DNA of 39,500 bases, taken from the sequence record PP766721.1, one strand, 5' to 3'. Every line of letters starts with the position of its first letter. Position 1 is the stretch's first letter. The translations under genes and the position numbers were made by a program. Below, piece by piece: positions 2,551-28,481 of this stretch. The notes beneath the pieces are model-generated. The model was given only the letters and a program-made list of their open reading frames with translations, did not search any database and was not told where the DNA came from. Source of the stretch: Escherichia phage Baskent_phicoli_1.

Positions 2551-4119
2551 ATGGCTGAACGCGAAGGGTTCGCTGCTGAAGGAGCCAAAGCGGTCTATGA
2601 CCGACTGAAGAACGGGAGACAGCCATATGAGACACGCGCTCAGAACTGCGCTGCTGTCACTATCCCGTCACTGTTTCCTAAGGAGTCCGACAACTCATCT
2701 ACTGAGTATACCACTCCGTGGCAATCCGTAGGTGCTCGCTGCTTGAACAATTTGGCTGCAAAGCTGATGTTGGCGTTATTCCCTCAGTCACCATGGATGC
2801 GACTGACAGTCTCCGAATATGAGGCAAAGACCTTGAGTCAGGACTCAGAGGCGGCTGCTCGTGTTGACGAAGGGCTGGCTATGGTCGAGCGTGTGTTGAT
2901 GGCTTACATGGAGACTAACAGTTTCCGCGTCCCATTATTCGAGGCGCTGAAGCAGCTTATCGTCTCAGGTAACTGTCTGCTCTACATTCCAGAGCCTGAA
3001 CAGGGTACCTACAGTCCCATGCGAATGTACCGCTTAGTGTCTTACGTTGTTCAACGTGATGCGTTCGGTAACATCTTGCAGATTGTGACTCTCGACAAGG
3101 TAGCGTTTAGTGCTCTACCGGAAGACGTGAAGTCTCAGCTCAACGCAGACGACTATGAGCCTGACACCGAGCTGGAAGTATATACACACATCTACCGTCA
3201 GGACGACGAGTATCTGCGCTACGAGGAAGTGGAAGGCATTGAGGTGACAGGGACCGATGGTTCCTACCCGCTGACTGCATGTCCATACATCCCGGTACGA
3301 ATGGTTCGACTGGATGGTGAAGACTACGGTCGTTCTTACTGCGAGGAGTATCTGGGAGACCTCAACTCGCTGGAGACGATTACAGAAGCTATCACCAAAA
3401 TGGCTAAGGTAGCCTCCAAGGTGGTGGGCCTCGTTAACCCGAACGGTATCACGCAACCTCGACGTCTGAACAAGGCGGCTACAGGTGAGTTCGTGGCTGG
3501 TCGCGTTGAGGACATCAACTTCCTGCAACTGACGAAAGGTCAGGACTTTACGATTGCCAAGTCGGTGGCTGATGCTATCGAGCAACGTTTAGGCTGGGCC
3601 TTCCTTCTTAATAGTGCTGTTCAGCGTAATGCCGAGCGGGTCACTGCTGAAGAGATTCGTTATGTTGCTGGCGAACTGGAGGCGACCTTAGGTGGCGTGT
3701 ACTCAGTTCAGTCACAAGAGCTTCAGTTACCTATAGTCCGTGTGCTGATGAACCAACTTCAGTCTGCTGGCATGATTCCTGACCTTCCGAAAGAAGCGGT
3801 AGAACCTACTGTATCCACTGGTCTGGAAGCTCTGGGCCGTGGTCAGGACTTAGAGAAGCTAACTCAGGCAGTCAACATGATGACCGGGCTACAGCCTCTG
3901 CAACAGGACCCAGACATTAACTTGCCGACCCTGAAGCTGCGACTGCTGAATGCCTTAGGCATTGACACCGCTGGTCTACTGCTGACTCAGGACGAGAAGC
4001 TGCAACGTATGGCTGAACAATCCGCTCAAGGAGCTGTGGTCAACGGTGCGTCTGCTGCTGGTGCTAACATGGGCGCTGCTGTAGGTCAAGGAGCTGGTGA
4101 GGATATGGCTCAGGCCTAA
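2551..4119 (+). CDS. gp8: Portal (head-to-tail connector) protein, gene 8
   Basis: 522 aa; size and position as T7 gp8 (536 aa); GGAGG SD. Confidence 0.93.
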   Translation: MAEREGFAAEGAKAVYDRLKNGRQPYETRAQNCAAVTIPSLFPKESDNSSTEYTTPWQSVGARCLNNLAAKLMLALFPQSPWMRLTVSEYEAKTLSQDSEAAARVDEGLAMVERVLMAYMETNSFRVPLFEALKQLIVSGNCLLYIPEPEQGTYSPMRMYRLVSYVVQRDAFGNILQIVTLDKVAFSALPEDVKSQLNADDYEPDTELEVYTHIYRQDDEYLRYEEVEGIEVTGTDGSYPLTACPYIPVRMVRLDGEDYGRSYCEEYLGDLNSLETITEAITKMAKVASKVVGLVNPNGITQPRRLNKAATGEFVAGRVEDINFLQLTKGQDFTIAKSVADAIEQRLGWAFLLNSAVQRNAERVTAEEIRYVAGELEATLGGVYSVQSQELQLPIVRVLMNQLQSAGMIPDLPKEAVEPTVSTGLEALGRGQDLEKLTQAVNMMTGLQPLQQDPDINLPTLKLRLLNALGIDTAGLLLTQDEKLQRMAEQSAQGAVVNGASAAGANMGAAVGQGAGEDMAQA

Positions 4120-23240: not shown

Positions 23241-23310
23241 CACCTACAGTCTCACTACCTACAGTCTCCGACCATGAGACACTCACTACCTACAGTCATA
23301 GACCTACAGA
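23241..23310 (+). repeat. Array of four (A)CCTACAG(T) heptamer repeats downstream of the terminal repeat
   Basis: ACCTACAGTCTC, CTACCTACAGTCTCC, CTACCTACAGTCAT, GACCTACAGATAA read directly. Confidence 0.6.
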
Positions 23311-23422
23311 TAATAGACATAAAGCTATAGACTTAAGGTCTAAGACATGTTAGTCAAAAGACTACATCCTCTTACACCATGGGGCCGACGATAGCTTAAT
23401 TAATATTATTTCAAATTACCTA

Positions 23423-23452
23423 TTGACTATAGGTCTAGACTGTGGCTTAATA
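23423..23452 (+). promoter_or_regulatory. Host sigma70-type early promoter (A1-like)
   Basis: TTGACT at 23423-23428, 17-bp spacer, CTTAAT; AT-rich UP-like tract upstream; T7 A1 also has TTGACT. Confidence 0.55.
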
Positions 23453-23563
23453 GCTTCCGTCAACACGACACGGCAACAACCGGATAGTGAAGACGCCGGG
23501 TCATCCCGGTTAAGTAGACAGCCTGATAAGTCATACGAACAACAGGCAGATGACAGAAAGTAG

Positions 23564-23593
23564 TTGACAAGCAGTAACGACTTAAAGTAGTAT
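23564..23593 (+). promoter_or_regulatory. Host sigma70-type early promoter (A2-like)
   Basis: TTGACA at 23564-23569, 18-bp spacer, TAGTAT; flanks match the T7 A2 region (ACAGGxxTTGACAA). Confidence 0.6.
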
Positions 23594-23711
23594 GTACCAC
23601 GTAGCAAGATGGCGTAGGGATAGGAACCGAGAAACCTGCCAGAGGCCAGCCAAGGATAAGGCACCAGCCGTGAGTCGAATTCGGTCACTCACCGCATAAA
23701 AGAATAACAGG

Positions 23712-23740
23712 TTGACAGCCTCCTTTAAAAGCTGTAAGCT
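23712..23740 (+). promoter_or_regulatory. Host sigma70-type early promoter (A3-like)
   Basis: TTGACA at 23712-23717, 17-bp spacer, TAAGCT; downstream CCACATCGAAACGACGGTGA matches T7 A3 context CCACATGAAACGACAGTGA. Confidence 0.6.
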
Positions 23741-23941
23741 GTGCCACATCGAAACGACGGTGAAGCCTAACACTGAAACAGGCTAGCACGGCGACGACAG
23801 CCAATGCGAATGCTCTTTAACAATCTGGATAAACTCTTAATGTGCGCCGATAGCGACTAACTACAGGGTCTTTGAGTCTACATCTGAAGGCCCTGACTGA
23901 TAGTCACTAACATACACAAACAACTTTGAGAGGATATAACT

Positions 23942-24277
23942 ATGGAACGTAACGCTAACGCATACTATGAGCTGCTGGCTGCAACCGTTGAAGCATTTAA
24001 CGAGAGCATTCAGTACGACAAAATAGCTGAAGGTGATGACTACAGCGATGCGCTGCATGAAGTCGTAGACAGTCATGTTCCGCACTATTACCACGAGATT
24101 TTCACGGTGATGGCTGCTGATGGTATTGACCATGAGTTCGAAGACTCTGGGCTGATGCCTGAGACCAAGGACGTAACGCGTATACTACAAGCTCGCATTT
24201 ATGAAGCACTGTATAACGATGTATCTAATAGCTCGGATGTAGTCTGGTTCGAGTCTACTGAGGAGGAATGCGAGTGA
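23942..24277 (+). CDS. ocr: Ocr (gene 0.3) DNA-mimic anti-restriction protein
   Basis: 111 aa, very acidic; VPHYYxxIFxVMAxxGIDxEFEDSGLMPxTKDVxRILQARIYE nearly identical to T7 Ocr. Confidence 0.92.
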   Translation: MERNANAYYELLAATVEAFNESIQYDKIAEGDDYSDALHEVVDSHVPHYYHEIFTVMAADGIDHEFEDSGLMPETKDVTRILQARIYEALYNDVSNSSDVVWFESTEEECE

Positions 24278-24429
24278 TGGTAACTTATGGCCTATGCCAG
24301 CACCACGTCACCAACGCCCGGCTTATGGTCAAGACCGGGCAGTTAAACCACGATGCGATTATGCGTCACCTGAAGGCGGTCTATGAGGGCCGCAAGCGTA
24401 TACACGACAGTTTGCACGCTGAGGTGTAA
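24277..24429 (+). CDS. Small early protein at gene 0.4 position (50 aa)
   Basis: ORF below track cutoff, ATG overlapping ocr stop (TGATG); function unassigned. Confidence 0.4.
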   Translation: MVTYGLCQHHVTNARLMVKTGQLNHDAIMRHLKAVYEGRKRIHDSLHAEV

Positions 24430-24456
24430 CTTACTGGCGGGTACTGAGTGATAAAT

Positions 24457-24490
24457 GAGAGGTCATCGACTGATAGGTGGCCTCAAAGAT
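24457..24490 (+). promoter_or_regulatory. Conserved structured element (putative RNase III site, R0.5-like)
   Basis: GAGAGGTCAT-N11-GTGGCCTCAAAGATTA, variant of the AGGTCAT...GTGGCCTT element. Confidence 0.45.
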
Positions 24491-24517
24491 TACCACTTGC
24501 ATTAATAGGAGTTAACT

Positions 24518-24685
24518 ATGAAATTTACAATCATCGCACTTTATGTAACCATTATTCTATCTTGGCTTACTGCGGTGCTCACTGATGGGAACGCATTACG
24601 ACTGGGATGGCTGGCAGTGGACATTATATTCTCTCCGGTAGGGGTCGTGCGGGGCATCTTGATGTGGTTTGGATTGGTGGGATAA
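24518..24685 (+). CDS. Small hydrophobic early protein (55 aa, predicted membrane)
   Basis: MKFTIIALYVTIILSWLTAVL... with AGGAG SD 6 nt upstream; below track cutoff. Confidence 0.4.
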   Translation: MKFTIIALYVTIILSWLTAVLTDGNALRLGWLAVDIIFSPVGVVRGILMWFGLVG

Positions 24686-24774
24686 ACTATGAGTATTGGA
24701 CATTGGGTATGCCTAGCGCCAGTTATCTCGATGATAGGTTATGGGATATATGATTGTATTAAACGGAAATCACT

Positions 24775-24972
24775 ATGAGTCTTGCACTATTGATAGCCAT
24801 AGGATATGGACTTATCGCCTACGTGCTGATGAGAGACATCAACAAAGCGCGTAAAGTCTACAAATTCAACTATGTACGGCTGGGCCGCTGGACTGTACGT
24901 CAACCTAACGGACGATTCATGCGAAACTTAGCGAACGTCTGGGACATAGCAACTCTGGGAGGTAAACTGTGA
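24775..24972 (+). CDS. Small early protein with N-terminal TM helix (65 aa)
   Basis: MSLALLIAIGYGLIAYVLM then basic tail; coupled upstream and downstream. Confidence 0.5.
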   Translation: MSLALLIAIGYGLIAYVLMRDINKARKVYKFNYVRLGRWTVRQPNGRFMRNLANVWDIATLGGKL

Positions 24973-25397
24973 TGGAAAAGCTATGCAGAACATGCCACGC
25001 TTTAAAGCCGCTGGAAGAGTACCACAAGCATAAAACCTCCAAAGACGGCAGGGAGAGTCAGTGTAAGACTTGCCGCAATAAGCAGATTATGAAGACCAGG
25101 AAACTACGATACAGTAAGTCTGCTAGCTTCAGGGAGTCTAAACGGAACGAAACCCTGCGTAAACTGTACGGGATTACAGTAGATGACTATGAGGAGATGT
25201 TTAAGCGGCAGGGCGGGGTGTGCGCTATCTGTCATCAGCCGGAAACTGGTAACATACGAATGGCGGTAGACCACTGTCATGCAAGTGGTAAAGTTCGCGG
25301 GCTACTGTGTAAAAACTGCAACACTGCGCTAGGAAACCTAAAAGACTCGATTGAGATTCTCACAAACGCAATCACATATCTTCAGGAGAACAATTAA
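24969..25397 (+). CDS. Endonuclease VII-family (HNH-fold) nuclease, probable homing endonuclease
   Basis: 142 aa; GGVCAICHQPETGNIRMAVDHCHASGKVRGLLCKNCNTALG aligns with T4 endonuclease VII GKCLICQREL...HLDHDHELNGPKAGKVRGLLCNLCNAAEG; extra N-terminal CxxC...CxxC. Confidence 0.8.
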   Translation: MMEKLCRTCHALKPLEEYHKHKTSKDGRESQCKTCRNKQIMKTRKLRYSKSASFRESKRNETLRKLYGITVDDYEEMFKRQGGVCAICHQPETGNIRMAVDHCHASGKVRGLLCKNCNTALGNLKDSIEILTNAITYLQENN

Positions 25398-25399
25398 TA

Positions 25400-25708
25400 A
25401 TGAGCAAGTCAAACGGTCTGGCATACGCAATGGTGGTAGCAATGGAAGAAGCAATCATGGCCCGTAAGTCCCGCTCTGAACGCGAACAAGCGGAGCGTGA
25501 TATGGTCCTGACTAAGCGCATGTTGGCTGAGGGCCACAAGGTAGACACCATGATTTATGTCTACGGGTCCACCAACATGAAGTCTGAAGACGGTAAGCTG
25601 CTGCTGGCAGGTAGACGGGCTGACATCCAACGGGCAAGCCTGAAGCACACGACACGCGGTGACTTCAGTCATCTTCACGCTAACCAACTGATATGCAAGC
25701 AATTCTGA
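25400..25708 (+). CDS. Hypothetical early protein (102 aa)
   Basis: ORF with compact spacing after the Endo VII-like gene; no motif recognised. Confidence 0.55.
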   Translation: MSKSNGLAYAMVVAMEEAIMARKSRSEREQAERDMVLTKRMLAEGHKVDTMIYVYGSTNMKSEDGKLLLAGRRADIQRASLKHTTRGDFSHLHANQLICKQF

Positions 25709-25730
25709 CTTAACTATCACTATAGGACTC
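25708..25730 (+). promoter_or_regulatory. Phage RNAP promoter immediately upstream of the RNAP gene, +1 G about 25725
   Basis: CTTAACTATCACTATAGGACTC, one or two mismatches to the window consensus, 75 bp before gene 1 ATG. Confidence 0.65.
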
Positions 25731-25799
25731 AAGGTCTAAGACTCCAAGTGAAAGACCAAAGAGACTTTAAGTGAAAGACTAATAACAAGGACTTTAAGT

Positions 25800-28481
25800 A
25801 TGAGCGTCATCTCTATTGACAAACACGACTTCTCTGATGTGTCAAACGCCATTGAGCCGTTTAACCTGCTGGCCGACCACTACGGGCAAGACCTTGCAGT
25901 CAAACAGCTTCAGCTTGAGCATGAGGCATACACTGAAGGCGAGCGACGTTTCATCAAAAACCTTGAGCGACAGACTGAGCGCGGGGAACTGGCAGACAAT
26001 CAGGTCGCCAAGCCTTTGATGCAGACTCTGGTTCCTAAGATTGCGCAAGCCGTCAGGGAGTGGCACGAAGGTCCAGACGGGAAGCTGTCAACCTCTCGTC
26101 CGAGCGTAGCGTTCACCATGTTGAGCACTGAAGAGAAGGCCGTCAAGGACCGCTCTATGCGTATCTCCTGTGAGTCTGCTGCGGTCATCATACTGAAGGT
26201 CATACTCTCCAAGCTGGTCAAGCCTGAAGGTATACCGATTACACCGATGGCCTCAGCGATAGGTCGCACACTTGAGGACGAAATCCGCTTCGGTCGCATC
26301 CGTGACAAGGAGAAGGAGCATTTCAAGAAGGCGATAGCTGAGAACTTGAACAAGCGAGCTGGGGTATCCTACAAGAAAGCCTACATGCAAGCTGTCGAGG
26401 CATCCATGCTGGAGCAAGGCCAACTGGAAGATGCATGGGGAACTTGGAGTCCGACCGAGGCTGTCCACGTTGGAATCAAGATGCTTGAGATCGTCATCCA
26501 GTCAACACAGCTGGTCGAGCTTAAGCGTTATGGTGCTGGCAATGCAGCAGCTGACGTCGAGATGGTCCACCTGACAGACTTCTGGGTCAAGAAGATGGCA
26601 CAACGAGGATTCAGCCTTGCGGGTATCGCTCCAGTCTACCAGCCTTGCGTAGTTCCACCTAAGCCGTGGACTGGTGTAGTGGGAGGTGGATACTGGGCCA
26701 AAGGTCGCAGACCGTTGCCATTGATTCGCTTAGGGTCTAAGTCTGCGGTGGCACGTTATGAAGACGTATACATGCCTGAAGTCTATGACGCTGTGAATAT
26801 CATCCAGAATACACCTTGGAAAGTGAACAAGAAGGTTCTGGACGTGGTGAACATGGTCGAGAAGTTGAACAACACGCCTATTGATGACATCCCTCAGATG
26901 GAGCCACTGAAGCCTGAAGACTATGCGGGCGAGACTGAAGAGGAACTCAAGGCATGGAAGAAAGCTGCTGCTGGTATCTACCGCCGAGAGAAGGCCCGGC
27001 AGTCACGCAGATTGTCACTAAGCTTTATCGTCAACCAAGCGAACAAATTCTCTCAGTTCAAGGCCATCTGGTTCCCGTACAACATGGACTGGCGCGGACG
27101 CGTCTACGCTGTTCCGATGTTCAACCCTCAGGGTAACGACATGCAAAAAGGGCTCCTTACTCTGGCAGTCGGCAAGCCCATTGGTGCCGATGGTTTTAAA
27201 TGGCTGAAGGTCCACGGTGCAAACTGCGCGGGTATTGATAAAGTCACCTTCGAGGAGCGCATCAAGTGGGTGGAAGACAACCACGACAACATCATGGCTG
27301 CTGCTAAGGCACCGATGGACAGCATTGAGTGGTGGGGAAAGTTAGACTCTCCATTCTGCTTCCTAGCGTTCTGCTTCGAGTATGCTGGCGTAATGCACCA
27401 CGGATTGTCTTACTCCTGCTCGCTGCCGATAGCGTTCGATGGGTCATGCTCTGGGATTCAACACTTTAGCGCGATGCTTCGTGATCACATCGGTGGACAT
27501 GCAGTAAACCTGACGCCTTCAGGTAAGGTCCAAGACATCTACCGCATCGTGTCTGACCGCATTGAGGAAGAGCTTAAAGTCCTGCTGGTTAAGGGCACGG
27601 ACAACGAGGTGGTCACTCACGAGGACAAGAAAACTGGTGAGATTACCGAACGTCTCAAGCTGGGGACACGAGAGCTGGCCCGTCAGTGGCTGACTTACGG
27701 TATGTCACGCAAGGTCACTAAGCGCTCAGTCATGACTCTGGCCTACGGGTCGAAAGAGTATGGCTTCGCAGACCAAGTTTACGAGGACATCGTGATGCCA
27801 GCGATTGACTCAGGGTCTGGCGCTATGTTCACCGAACCAAGCCAAGCGTCCCGCTTCATGGCTAAGATGATTTGGGAAGCTGTGAGCGTGACCGTAGTTG
27901 CTGCTGTTGACGCGATGAAGTGGCTTCAGGGTGCTGCCAAGCTGCTGGCTGCTGAAGTGAAGGACAAGAAGACTGGAGAAATCCTGAAGCCTTGCCTTCC
28001 GGTACACTGGGTCACACCTGATGGTTTCCCTGTCTGGCAGGAATACCGCAAGAAGGATACCACTCGTCTGAACCTGATGTTCTTAGGGTCATTCAACCTT
28101 CAACCTACGGTCAACAAGGGCACGAAGAAAGAGCTGGACAAGCACAAGCAGGAGTCAGGCATTAGCCCGAACTTCGTCCACTCACAAGATGGGAGCCACC
28201 TACGCAAGACTGTAGTCCACACTCACCGCAAGTATGGTGTTATGTCATTCGCAGTGATTCACGATAGCTTCGGGACCATCCCGGCTGACGCTGAGTATCT
28301 GTTCCGTGGTGTCCGTGAGACGATGGTCGAGACCTACCGCGACAACGACGTGCTGCTTGACTTCTACGAGCAGTTCGAATACCAGCTTCATGAGAGCCAG
28401 CGCGACAAGTTGCCCGAGCTTCCGAAGAAAGGTAAACTGAACATCGAAGACATTCTGTCTTCAGACTTTGCATTCGCTTAA
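25800..28481 (+). CDS. gp1: Single-subunit DNA-dependent RNA polymerase, gene 1
   Basis: 893 aa; collinear with T7 RNAP throughout (NxAKxDFSD, PFNxLADHYG, FPYNMDWRGRVYAV, MFNPQGNDMxKGLLTLA, DGSCSGIQHFSAMLRD, VTKRSVMTLAYGSKE, VHWVTPDGFPVWQEY, HKQESGIxPNFVHSQDGSHLRKTV, IHDSFGTIPADA, FAFA C-terminus). Confidence 0.98.
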   Translation: MSVISIDKHDFSDVSNAIEPFNLLADHYGQDLAVKQLQLEHEAYTEGERRFIKNLERQTERGELADNQVAKPLMQTLVPKIAQAVREWHEGPDGKLSTSRPSVAFTMLSTEEKAVKDRSMRISCESAAVIILKVILSKLVKPEGIPITPMASAIGRTLEDEIRFGRIRDKEKEHFKKAIAENLNKRAGVSYKKAYMQAVEASMLEQGQLEDAWGTWSPTEAVHVGIKMLEIVIQSTQLVELKRYGAGNAAADVEMVHLTDFWVKKMAQRGFSLAGIAPVYQPCVVPPKPWTGVVGGGYWAKGRRPLPLIRLGSKSAVARYEDVYMPEVYDAVNIIQNTPWKVNKKVLDVVNMVEKLNNTPIDDIPQMEPLKPEDYAGETEEELKAWKKAAAGIYRREKARQSRRLSLSFIVNQANKFSQFKAIWFPYNMDWRGRVYAVPMFNPQGNDMQKGLLTLAVGKPIGADGFKWLKVHGANCAGIDKVTFEERIKWVEDNHDNIMAAAKAPMDSIEWWGKLDSPFCFLAFCFEYAGVMHHGLSYSCSLPIAFDGSCSGIQHFSAMLRDHIGGHAVNLTPSGKVQDIYRIVSDRIEEELKVLLVKGTDNEVVTHEDKKTGEITERLKLGTRELARQWLTYGMSRKVTKRSVMTLAYGSKEYGFADQVYEDIVMPAIDSGSGAMFTEPSQASRFMAKMIWEAVSVTVVAAVDAMKWLQGAAKLLAAEVKDKKTGEILKPCLPVHWVTPDGFPVWQEYRKKDTTRLNLMFLGSFNLQPTVNKGTKKELDKHKQESGISPNFVHSQDGSHLRKTVVHTHRKYGVMSFAVIHDSFGTIPADAEYLFRGVRETMVETYRDNDVLLDFYEQFEYQLHESQRDKLPELPKKGKLNIEDILSSDFAFA

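Follow-up and report, generated by a model that had tools for sequence, protein, structure and literature searches.

In the 39,500-nucleotide sequence of Escherichia phage Baskent_phicoli_1 (PP766721.1; the whole of this stretch is referred to here as the window), four small open reading frames (ORFs), designated A to D, follow directly after ocr (gene 0.3), and on comparative evidence all four are real genes that are conserved and under purifying selection. The first of them, ORF A, is by sequence and profile comparison gp0.35 of phage K1F and a divergent member of the family of the T7 FtsZ inhibitor Gp0.4, and this homology together with two published studies suggests that ORF A probably inhibits FtsZ. 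The window is the genome of a Kayfunavirus (K1F-like, T7-group) phage, and the region discussed here is its host-transcribed class I (early) part, as judged by the annotated records of T7, T3, phiYeO3-12, K1F, and EcoDS1. ORFs A, B, and D belong to families that are already in PHROGs or Pfam; the members are new and the families are known.

The homologous region was collected from approximately 29 related genomes and each ORF was located there. Frames and ATG starts were unbroken for all four ORFs in these loci, and the variable alignment columns were concentrated at third codon positions in each of them. The pooled ratios of nonsynonymous to synonymous substitution rates (dN/dS, by the Nei-Gojobori method) were 0.23 for A, 0.23 for B, 0.15 for C, and 0.25 for D, calculated from 20, 8, 18, and 27 distinct sequences, respectively. 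When 50,697 deposited phage records were searched by tblastn, matches were found for A in 181, for B in 50, for C in 91, and for D in 220, and ORFs A, B, and D matched PHROG families at E values of 1e-24 to 1e-32. Overlapping ORFs in alternative frames, including one that is annotated in EcoDS1, showed no conservation in relatives. Scans of the four ORFs against NCBIfam and a copy of Pfam that does not contain PF26807 gave no meaningful match, and an exact-sequence look-up of B and D in an assembly index found neither of them recorded. An earlier note, made from the letters of this DNA, had placed ORFs of 50, 55, about 29, and 65 amino acids (aa) right after ocr, with coordinates and lengths that proved exact; on conservation in relatives, which it had named beforehand as one of two points on which its reading could fail, all four ORFs were found to be conserved.

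The relationship of ORF A to T7 Gp0.4 was detected by several comparisons. BLASTP aligned the two proteins with 39% identity over 41 aa (E value 2e-6), and their PHROG families cross-matched, ORF A reaching phrog_7202, the T7 gp0.4 family, at an E value of 5.9e-5, and T7 gp0.4 matching its own phrog_7202 at 4.6e-33 and phrog_5058 at 9e-5. Alignment of the gp0.35-type proteins (20 sequences) with the gp0.4-type proteins (18 sequences) by hhalign gave a probability of 83% and an E value of 8.8e-6 over 42 columns. The precomputed label PF26807 was found on all 84 relatives of ORF A and on all 43 relatives of T7 gp0.4, and it is named Phage_T7_GP04 on a contig whose protein is 94% identical to ORF A. 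Furthermore, the two proteins are of nearly the same length (50 aa for ORF A, 51 aa for T7 Gp0.4) and have the motifs YGL, MV+xG, and LKxxYE in common, and their genes occupy the same slot: gene 0.4 of T7 begins where gene 0.3 ends and lies upstream of the R0.5 ribonuclease III (RNase III) site, and ORF A likewise begins at the end of ocr, upstream of an R0.5-like hairpin. A sequence search of the PDB with the ORF A profile found nothing.

It has been reported that alanine substitution of V15, V22, W28, M32, L35, or Y39 in T7 Gp0.4 each abolishes its toxicity, that these residues are at the predicted FtsZ interface, and that W28L and L35P abolish FtsZ binding (PMC13423816). The six residues align with V11, V18, H25, M29, L32, and Y36 of ORF A, and five of them are identical. 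Within the gp0.35 family, L32 and Y36 are invariant and M29 is nearly so. The five residues specific to the contact of T7 Gp0.4 with the defence protein CapRel-Ebc (A12, T14, L16, S19, and R23) are all different at the aligned positions of ORF A (Q8, H10, T12, R15, and K19). A 2022 study showed that infection by K1F halts division of the host and results in filaments with about four Z-rings per cell and in mislocalised FtsZ; according to its authors, K1F "lacks the 0.4 genes" and its inhibitor "is currently unknown" and probably novel (PMC9372555). No later paper naming the K1F FtsZ inhibitor was found in our literature search. The family of ORF A and K1F gp0.35 is the obvious candidate for the K1F division block.

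Several observations weigh against this reading. The equivalent of T7 W28 is a nearly invariant histidine in the ORF A family (His25 in ORF A), the net charge is reversed (+3 for ORF A versus -2 for T7 Gp0.4), and the identity between the two proteins is only about 39% over 41 residues. The assignment of ORF A to PF26807 was made through the labels of relatives that are 94-96% identical to it and not through a model score of its own, and our literature search found no experiment on the four proteins, on T3 gp0.6, or on K1F gp0.35 to gp0.37. The target of ORF A may have been shifted or lost relative to that of T7 Gp0.4. In such a case ORF A would be a true Gp0.4 relative that no longer acts on FtsZ, and division in K1F-infected cells would be blocked by a different early protein, perhaps one of the membrane proteins with an effect on the division apparatus. 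There are precedents in other phages for a division block by a small membrane protein, SPO1 gp56 reportedly being one (bioRxiv 10.1101/2020.02.06.938217). This alternative draws on the low identity, on a C-terminus that is basic and not acidic, and on the histidine found across the family at a position where W28L or W28A abolishes the activity of T7 Gp0.4 (PMC13423816). However, the five identical residues are required at the interface and occupy the columns with the strongest conservation in both families, and K1F gives a multi-ring filament phenotype as T7 does (PMC9372555). Doubts about FtsZ inhibition come chiefly from the replacement of W28 by histidine and from the reversed charge. We consider a loss of this activity by ORF A to be unlikely.

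The earlier note had taken the four ORFs to be translationally coupled, which held for part of them. The junction of ocr and ORF A is TGATG with a 1-nt overlap, that of ORF D and the next gene is also TGATG, and that of ORFs C and D is an ATGA overlap, and translation is predicted to be coupled at these three places. ORFs B and C are separated by a gap of 3 nt. In contrast, ORF B is not coupled to ORF A, as the two are separated by a spacer of 88 nt that contains a conserved hairpin, and a strong ribosome-binding site (TAGGAG) precedes ORF B itself. The fold energy of the hairpin had a z-score of -2.1 versus shuffled sequences, and the hairpin was conserved among 18 distinct relative sequences. 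It aligned column by column with the annotated RNase III sites R0.5 of T7, R0.5 of T3, and R0.45 of phiYeO3-12; 3 of the 19 predicted pairs showed compensatory changes, the lower stem GAGUG.UA/UA.CACUU was common to the aligned sites, and the lower stem, internal loop, and upper stem of an R0.5-type site were kept at the same inter-cistronic position. An Rfam scan of positions 23300-25900 found nothing, the hairpin being without an Rfam family. Homology of the spacer hairpin to R0.5-type RNase III processing sites holds on this alignment, and by analogy with T7 RNase III would cut the early transcript at the hairpin and split a message for ocr and ORF A from a message that begins with B, C, and D.

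Of the two ORFs that the earlier note had called strongly hydrophobic, ORF B has a grand average of hydropathy (GRAVY) of 1.43 and a best 17-aa Kyte-Doolittle window of 2.40, and ORF D has a best window of 2.39 at its N-terminus (residues 3-19). ORF C, which the note did not mention in this respect, is moderately hydrophobic (best window 1.5), and ORF A is not hydrophobic.

ORF D is, by sequence comparison, a homologue of T3 gp0.6 and phiYeO3-12 gp0.6A. It aligned with T3 gp0.6 with 41% identity over 63 aa (BLASTP, E value 8e-11) and was 32% identical to phiYeO3-12 gp0.6A, and a comparison of the D and T3 gp0.6 families by hhalign gave a probability of 97.9% and an E value of 3.8e-13. T3 gp0.6 has the same length of 65 aa, the same early-operon slot, and the same architecture, which consists of a membrane helix, an RD..K junction, a TVR..NGRF strand motif, and a C-terminal helix. 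Compared with it, ORF D is 5 residues shorter in the first loop through a deletion and extends further at the C-terminus (LGGKL). Unlike T3 and phiYeO3-12, the window contains no 0.65/0.6B frameshift partner downstream of ORF D and no gp0.7 kinase after it. The AlphaFold2 model of ORF D, which is fairly confident with a predicted local distance difference test (pLDDT) score of 81.6, consists of a helix (residues 3-28), three strands (30-34, 38-42, and 48-52), and a second helix (55-64). Fold matches in BFVD, with TM-scores as high as 0.93, included phiYeO3-12 0.6B (probability 1.00). A Foldseek search of the PDB gave a best E value of 0.5, with T7 gp1.2 and HicA-like chains among the matches, all of them insignificant, and a PDB sequence search with the ORF D profile found nothing.

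Constraint on ORF D is unevenly distributed, dN/dS being 0.44 in the membrane helix, 0.15 in residues 21-65, and 0.066 in the core (residues 36-62). The protein has a net charge of +9, and basic residues immediately follow the helix; by the positive-inside rule the domain is thus expected to be cytoplasmic. The core is near-identical in phages of Escherichia, Salmonella, Enterobacter, Citrobacter, Klebsiella, and Cronobacter. A domain that is nearly invariant over phages of so many enterobacterial genera suggests that its target is itself conserved and is not an opponent in an arms race. The family is narrow, a phmmer search of 1.8 billion proteins having found only 7 representatives (clustered at 50%), and ORF D is therefore without distant cellular relatives in that collection; a plasmid search found it on none.

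ORF C was intact at exactly 29 codons in 19 related loci and always abutted ORF D through the ATGA overlap, and the frame and the overlap were retained at protein identities down to about 58%. Its variable columns numbered 13, 8, and 28 at the first, second, and third codon positions, so that 28 of the 29 third positions vary, and its consensus is MS.G.WVCL.PVI....GYG.YDCIKRKSL. No match to ORF C was found in PHROG, Pfam, or NCBIfam. The gene is often unannotated in deposited Kayfunavirus genomes, and EcoDS1 has a non-conserved ORF in another frame annotated at its place (positions 1143-1286 of locus L001, versus 1213-1302 for ORF C). Where ORF C is present, the sequence upstream of ORF D (aaacggaaatcact) is without a good Shine-Dalgarno sequence, and where it is absent, as in K1F and Vec13, ORF D takes over the GGCGGG site that ORF C uses in the window. 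Since ORF D is without a ribosome-binding site of its own only when ORF C precedes it, translation of ORF C probably drives that of ORF D. The possibility that ORF C is a truncated paralogue of the N-terminus of ORF D, suggested by an IGYG motif in both, was rejected (hhalign probability 2%; 394 of 5000 shuffles reached the Smith-Waterman score).

ORFs B and C occur in differing combinations among relatives, and in some of these a gp0.7-like gene of 244 aa precedes ORF D. In two loci that have neither B nor C, unrelated hydrophobic ORFs of 34 and 45 aa lie directly before the D homologue (L021, positions 1484-1588, and L026, positions 1464-1601), and a small membrane protein upstream of ORF D may be a recurring arrangement. 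In-frame fusions were also observed: in phage ZG49 (L030, positions 1520-1663), the membrane helix of ORF C is fused to the last 20 residues of ORF D, and in the metagenomic protein P0153 the first approximately 39 residues, which are of the ORF A type, are fused to the C-terminal 27 residues of ORF D. Both look like deletion products.

ORF B, which is 83.6% identical to K1F gp0.36, is a predicted two-helix membrane protein and a variable cassette. The family has 19 invariant columns and the motif WLTxV...D...GW...D....PxGVVRG..MW.G, and the invariant D35, P40, and R45 are within the second hydrophobic stretch. The AlphaFold2 model has helices at residues 2-22 and 24-50. A 59-aa homologue, 48% identical and with all of the invariant residues, is encoded on the 3.7-kb Klebsiella plasmid NZ_CP056430 (L072, positions 3049-3228), together with a replication initiator and MobC; this was the sole match for ORF B in the plasmid search, and it indicates that the B family is not confined to phages. 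In its position ORF B resembles T7 gp0.5 (phrog_16572), a hydrophobic class I protein of about 50 aa encoded by the first gene after the R0.5 site, and both have a GRAVY of about 1.4 and two hydrophobic stretches. The two are nevertheless without sequence similarity (BLASTP E value of 4; different PHROG families), and a relationship of ORF B to ORF C or D was rejected. A holin or lysis role for ORF B was set aside because the gene is in the early operon transcribed by the host polymerase and not in the late lysis region. The earlier note had found none of the four ORFs identifiable, which is true by eye; database and profile comparisons placed ORF A in the Gp0.4 family and identified ORF B as K1F gp0.36 and ORF D as a T3 gp0.6 homologue.

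These results can be combined into a scheme in which E. coli RNA polymerase would transcribe the promoter-proximal early operon in the first minutes of infection. ORF A would most likely bind monomeric FtsZ and block Z-ring assembly, whereby cell division would stop and the phage yield would rise. ORFs B, C, and D would insert into the inner membrane, B as a two-helix hairpin with conserved charged residues in the second helix and C as a single-pass peptide with a basic tail. ORF D is the conserved core gene, and its variable N-terminal helix would tether the nearly invariant, strongly basic domain. This domain may bind a target conserved in Enterobacterales at the cytoplasmic face of the inner membrane, for instance an envelope or cytoskeletal machine with a housekeeping role, or else the DNA-entry apparatus of the phage itself. 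ORFs B and C would act as exchangeable accessory cassettes in the membrane, with a role in exclusion or host-specific adaptation. As a whole, this is the best explanation of the data and one that we regard as likely to be correct. Its part on ORF D as a tethered domain with a conserved target and on B and C as accessories is put forward tentatively even in its general form, at somewhat less than an even chance, and any named target is far less probable. The scheme is tempered by the fact that the membrane topology of B, C, and D is predicted from hydropathy and charge only and that the structural model of ORF B is of low confidence (pLDDT 67). The earlier note had regarded all of these ORFs as candidate inhibitors on the precedent of small early T7-group proteins; the precedent of a division inhibitor is borne out by the family membership of ORF A, which is the non-hydrophobic one, and for B, C, and D an inhibitory role is a guess. 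It is quite doubtful that ORF D, aided by B and C, is an undescribed kind of membrane-tethered effector acting on a conserved inner-membrane machine. If this were true, ORF D in one version would block genome entry of competing T7-like phages and would be the superinfection-exclusion determinant of the group, and in the other version it would inhibit the elongation or division machinery from the membrane; in either version ORF C would be a translationally coupled partner.

Other readings of B, C, and D were also considered. T4 Imm and other known phage exclusion proteins are small and located in the inner membrane, and B, C, and D, being small, early, and predicted to be in the membrane, could be superinfection-exclusion or immunity proteins that block DNA entry by T7-like competitors or protect against membrane-acting toxins. 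The gain and loss of B and C as cassettes and their replacement by other hydrophobic mini-ORFs fit accessory genes for competition, and the B homologue with every invariant residue is cargo of the small Klebsiella plasmid. However, no sequence or fold link to known exclusion proteins was found, and the very strong purifying selection on the ORF D core, near-invariant over many host genera, is atypical of arms-race genes, which makes this reading unlikely. It is also conceivable that B, C, and/or D are anti-defence proteins directed against membrane-associated host immune systems, in view of their location next to the anti-restriction gene ocr in the first-expressed part of the genome and of the patchy distribution of B and C. 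This seems quite unlikely, as no similarity to described families was found and as ORF D, which almost all members of the genus have, is under high constraint; moreover, T3 gp0.6 is not known to counter any defence system.

A further reading concerns the name of ORF D, which is called gp0.37 or "0.6" in K1F records (DQ111067) and gp0.6 in EcoDS1. T7 gp0.6 is the protein reported as an MreB inhibitor, and the inner face of the membrane is where MreB acts. ORF D would then be the Kayfunavirus counterpart of T7 gp0.6 and would inhibit MreB from a membrane tether. Consistent with this are the shared name, the same operon position between the R0.5 site and the RNA polymerase gene, and the expectation that a basic domain on a membrane tether would suit the location of MreB. 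T7 gp0.6A/B resembles ORF D in operon position and in basic character, but it has no membrane helix. A relationship between them was tried and rejected at the sequence level: they belong to different PHROG families (phrog_8393 for T7 gp0.6A/B) without a cross-match, hhalign of the D family, or of D with T3, against the T7 gp0.6A family gave a probability of 0.4-0.5%, and the Smith-Waterman score of ORF D against T7 gp0.6A was reached by 1568 of 5000 shuffles, which is no signal. A C-terminal stretch of 13 residues in T3 gp0.6 (KANKVGVFYIATH), the true homologue of ORF D, resembles one in T7 gp0.6A (KINKIGSGYDRTH), with only 8 of 5000 shuffles scoring as high (T3 gene 0.6, L032 positions 1031-1228, compared with T7 gene 0.6A, L005 positions 1237-1398). 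The resemblance may be the remnant of a relationship of T3 gp0.6 to T7 gp0.6A; no such signal was found in ORF D of the window, and inhibition of MreB by ORF D appears distinctly improbable. The data do not separate the MreB-type, superinfection-exclusion, and anti-defence readings of B, C, and D, to each of which we assign a low probability. Finally, the idea that the small ORFs, or at least ORF C, are chance frames in an untranslated leader or spacer that give no protein, for which one could cite that ORF C is without a family match, often unannotated, only moderately hydrophobic, and replaced by an ORF in another frame in the EcoDS1 annotation, is effectively excluded by the strong family matches of A, B, and D and, for ORF C, by its constant length and ATGA overlap at about 58% identity, its low dN/dS, the variation of 28 third versus 8 second codon positions, and the lack of conservation of the alternative frames.

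The features of the early region are listed in Table 1. By megablast, 244 phage records matched positions 23900-25800, nearly all of them Kayfunavirus (K1F-like Studiervirinae), with PE3-1, Vec13, EcoDS1, and K1F among them; the closest records are also Kayfunavirus genomes. Coverage of at least 80% was reached in none of the 244 records, and the early region is therefore a mosaic. The gene order agrees with that of K1F, EcoDS1, PE3-1, and Vec13. K1F gp0.35, gp0.36, and gp0.37, together with their counterparts gp0.35 and gp0.6 in EcoDS1 and gp0.36 in PE3-1, are direct orthologues of ORFs A, B, and D, 77-96% identical and in the same order. K1F is without ORF C and EcoDS1 is without ORF B, whereas the window has both and, in addition, an Endonuclease VII cassette after ORF D. 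This Endonuclease VII-like gene is missing from most relatives, with 43-48% identical versions in four loci, and looks like a sporadic mobile cassette between ORF D and the gp0.38-like ORF. The latter is present in all relatives at about 55% identity and is also mosaic. Most relatives align with it only from residue 24 on, and one locus (L024) is 91% identical from residue 1.

Table 1. Features of the early region, with positions in the window
Feature	Position	Strand	Remarks
ocr (gene 0.3)	23942-24277	+	PF08684, E value 1.4e-31; phrog_2568, E value 1.2e-53; stop overlaps start of ORF A
ORF A	24277-24429	+	50 aa, predicted soluble; K1F gp0.35; T7 Gp0.4 family by homology; phrog_5058, E value 1.6e-28
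RNA hairpin in A-B spacer	24445-24499	+	matches R0.5-type RNase III sites of T7 and T3
ORF B	24518-24685	+	55 aa; predicted two-helix membrane hairpin; K1F gp0.36; phrog_7319, E value 2.3e-24
ORF C	24689-24778	+	29 aa; predicted single-pass microprotein; basic C-terminal tail DCIKRKSL
ORF D	24775-24972	+	65 aa; predicted membrane helix and basic domain; K1F gp0.37, T3 gp0.6 homologue; phrog_2385, E value 8.7e-32
Endonuclease VII-like gene	24972-25397	+	PF02945, E value 2.3e-29; start overlaps stop of ORF D
gp0.38-like ORF	25400-25708	+	102 aa; phrog_7066, E value 3.2e-25; last gene before RNA polymerase gene
Phage RNA polymerase gene	25800-28481

Each of ORFs B, C, and D has the heptamer ACTATGA precisely at its start (positions 24515, 24686, and 24772). 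The window contains 11 copies of it versus 5.7 expected. Short repeats of this kind at the borders of cassettes could be the reason why ORF B, which is not in EcoDS1, and ORF C, which is not in K1F and Vec13, are gained or lost cleanly. The ocr gene of Vec13 (MH400309; L002, positions 645-977) carries the GenBank label "protein kinase", which is an annotation error.

The link between K1F gp0.35 and Gp0.4, which was missed by the experimental literature, offers a directly testable candidate for the division inhibitor of K1F, and ORF A may be a natural case in which the target was kept while the surface recognized by the host sensor CapRel-Ebc was changed. The label "gp0.6" in Kayfunavirus records refers to the T3 gene and not to the MreB inhibitor of T7, and its clarification should stop the transfer of a wrong function. 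The under-annotated but conserved 29-aa gene and the constrained membrane-tethered domain, which is found in more than 200 phage genomes, are reasonable targets for functional studies of therapeutic phages of the K1 type.

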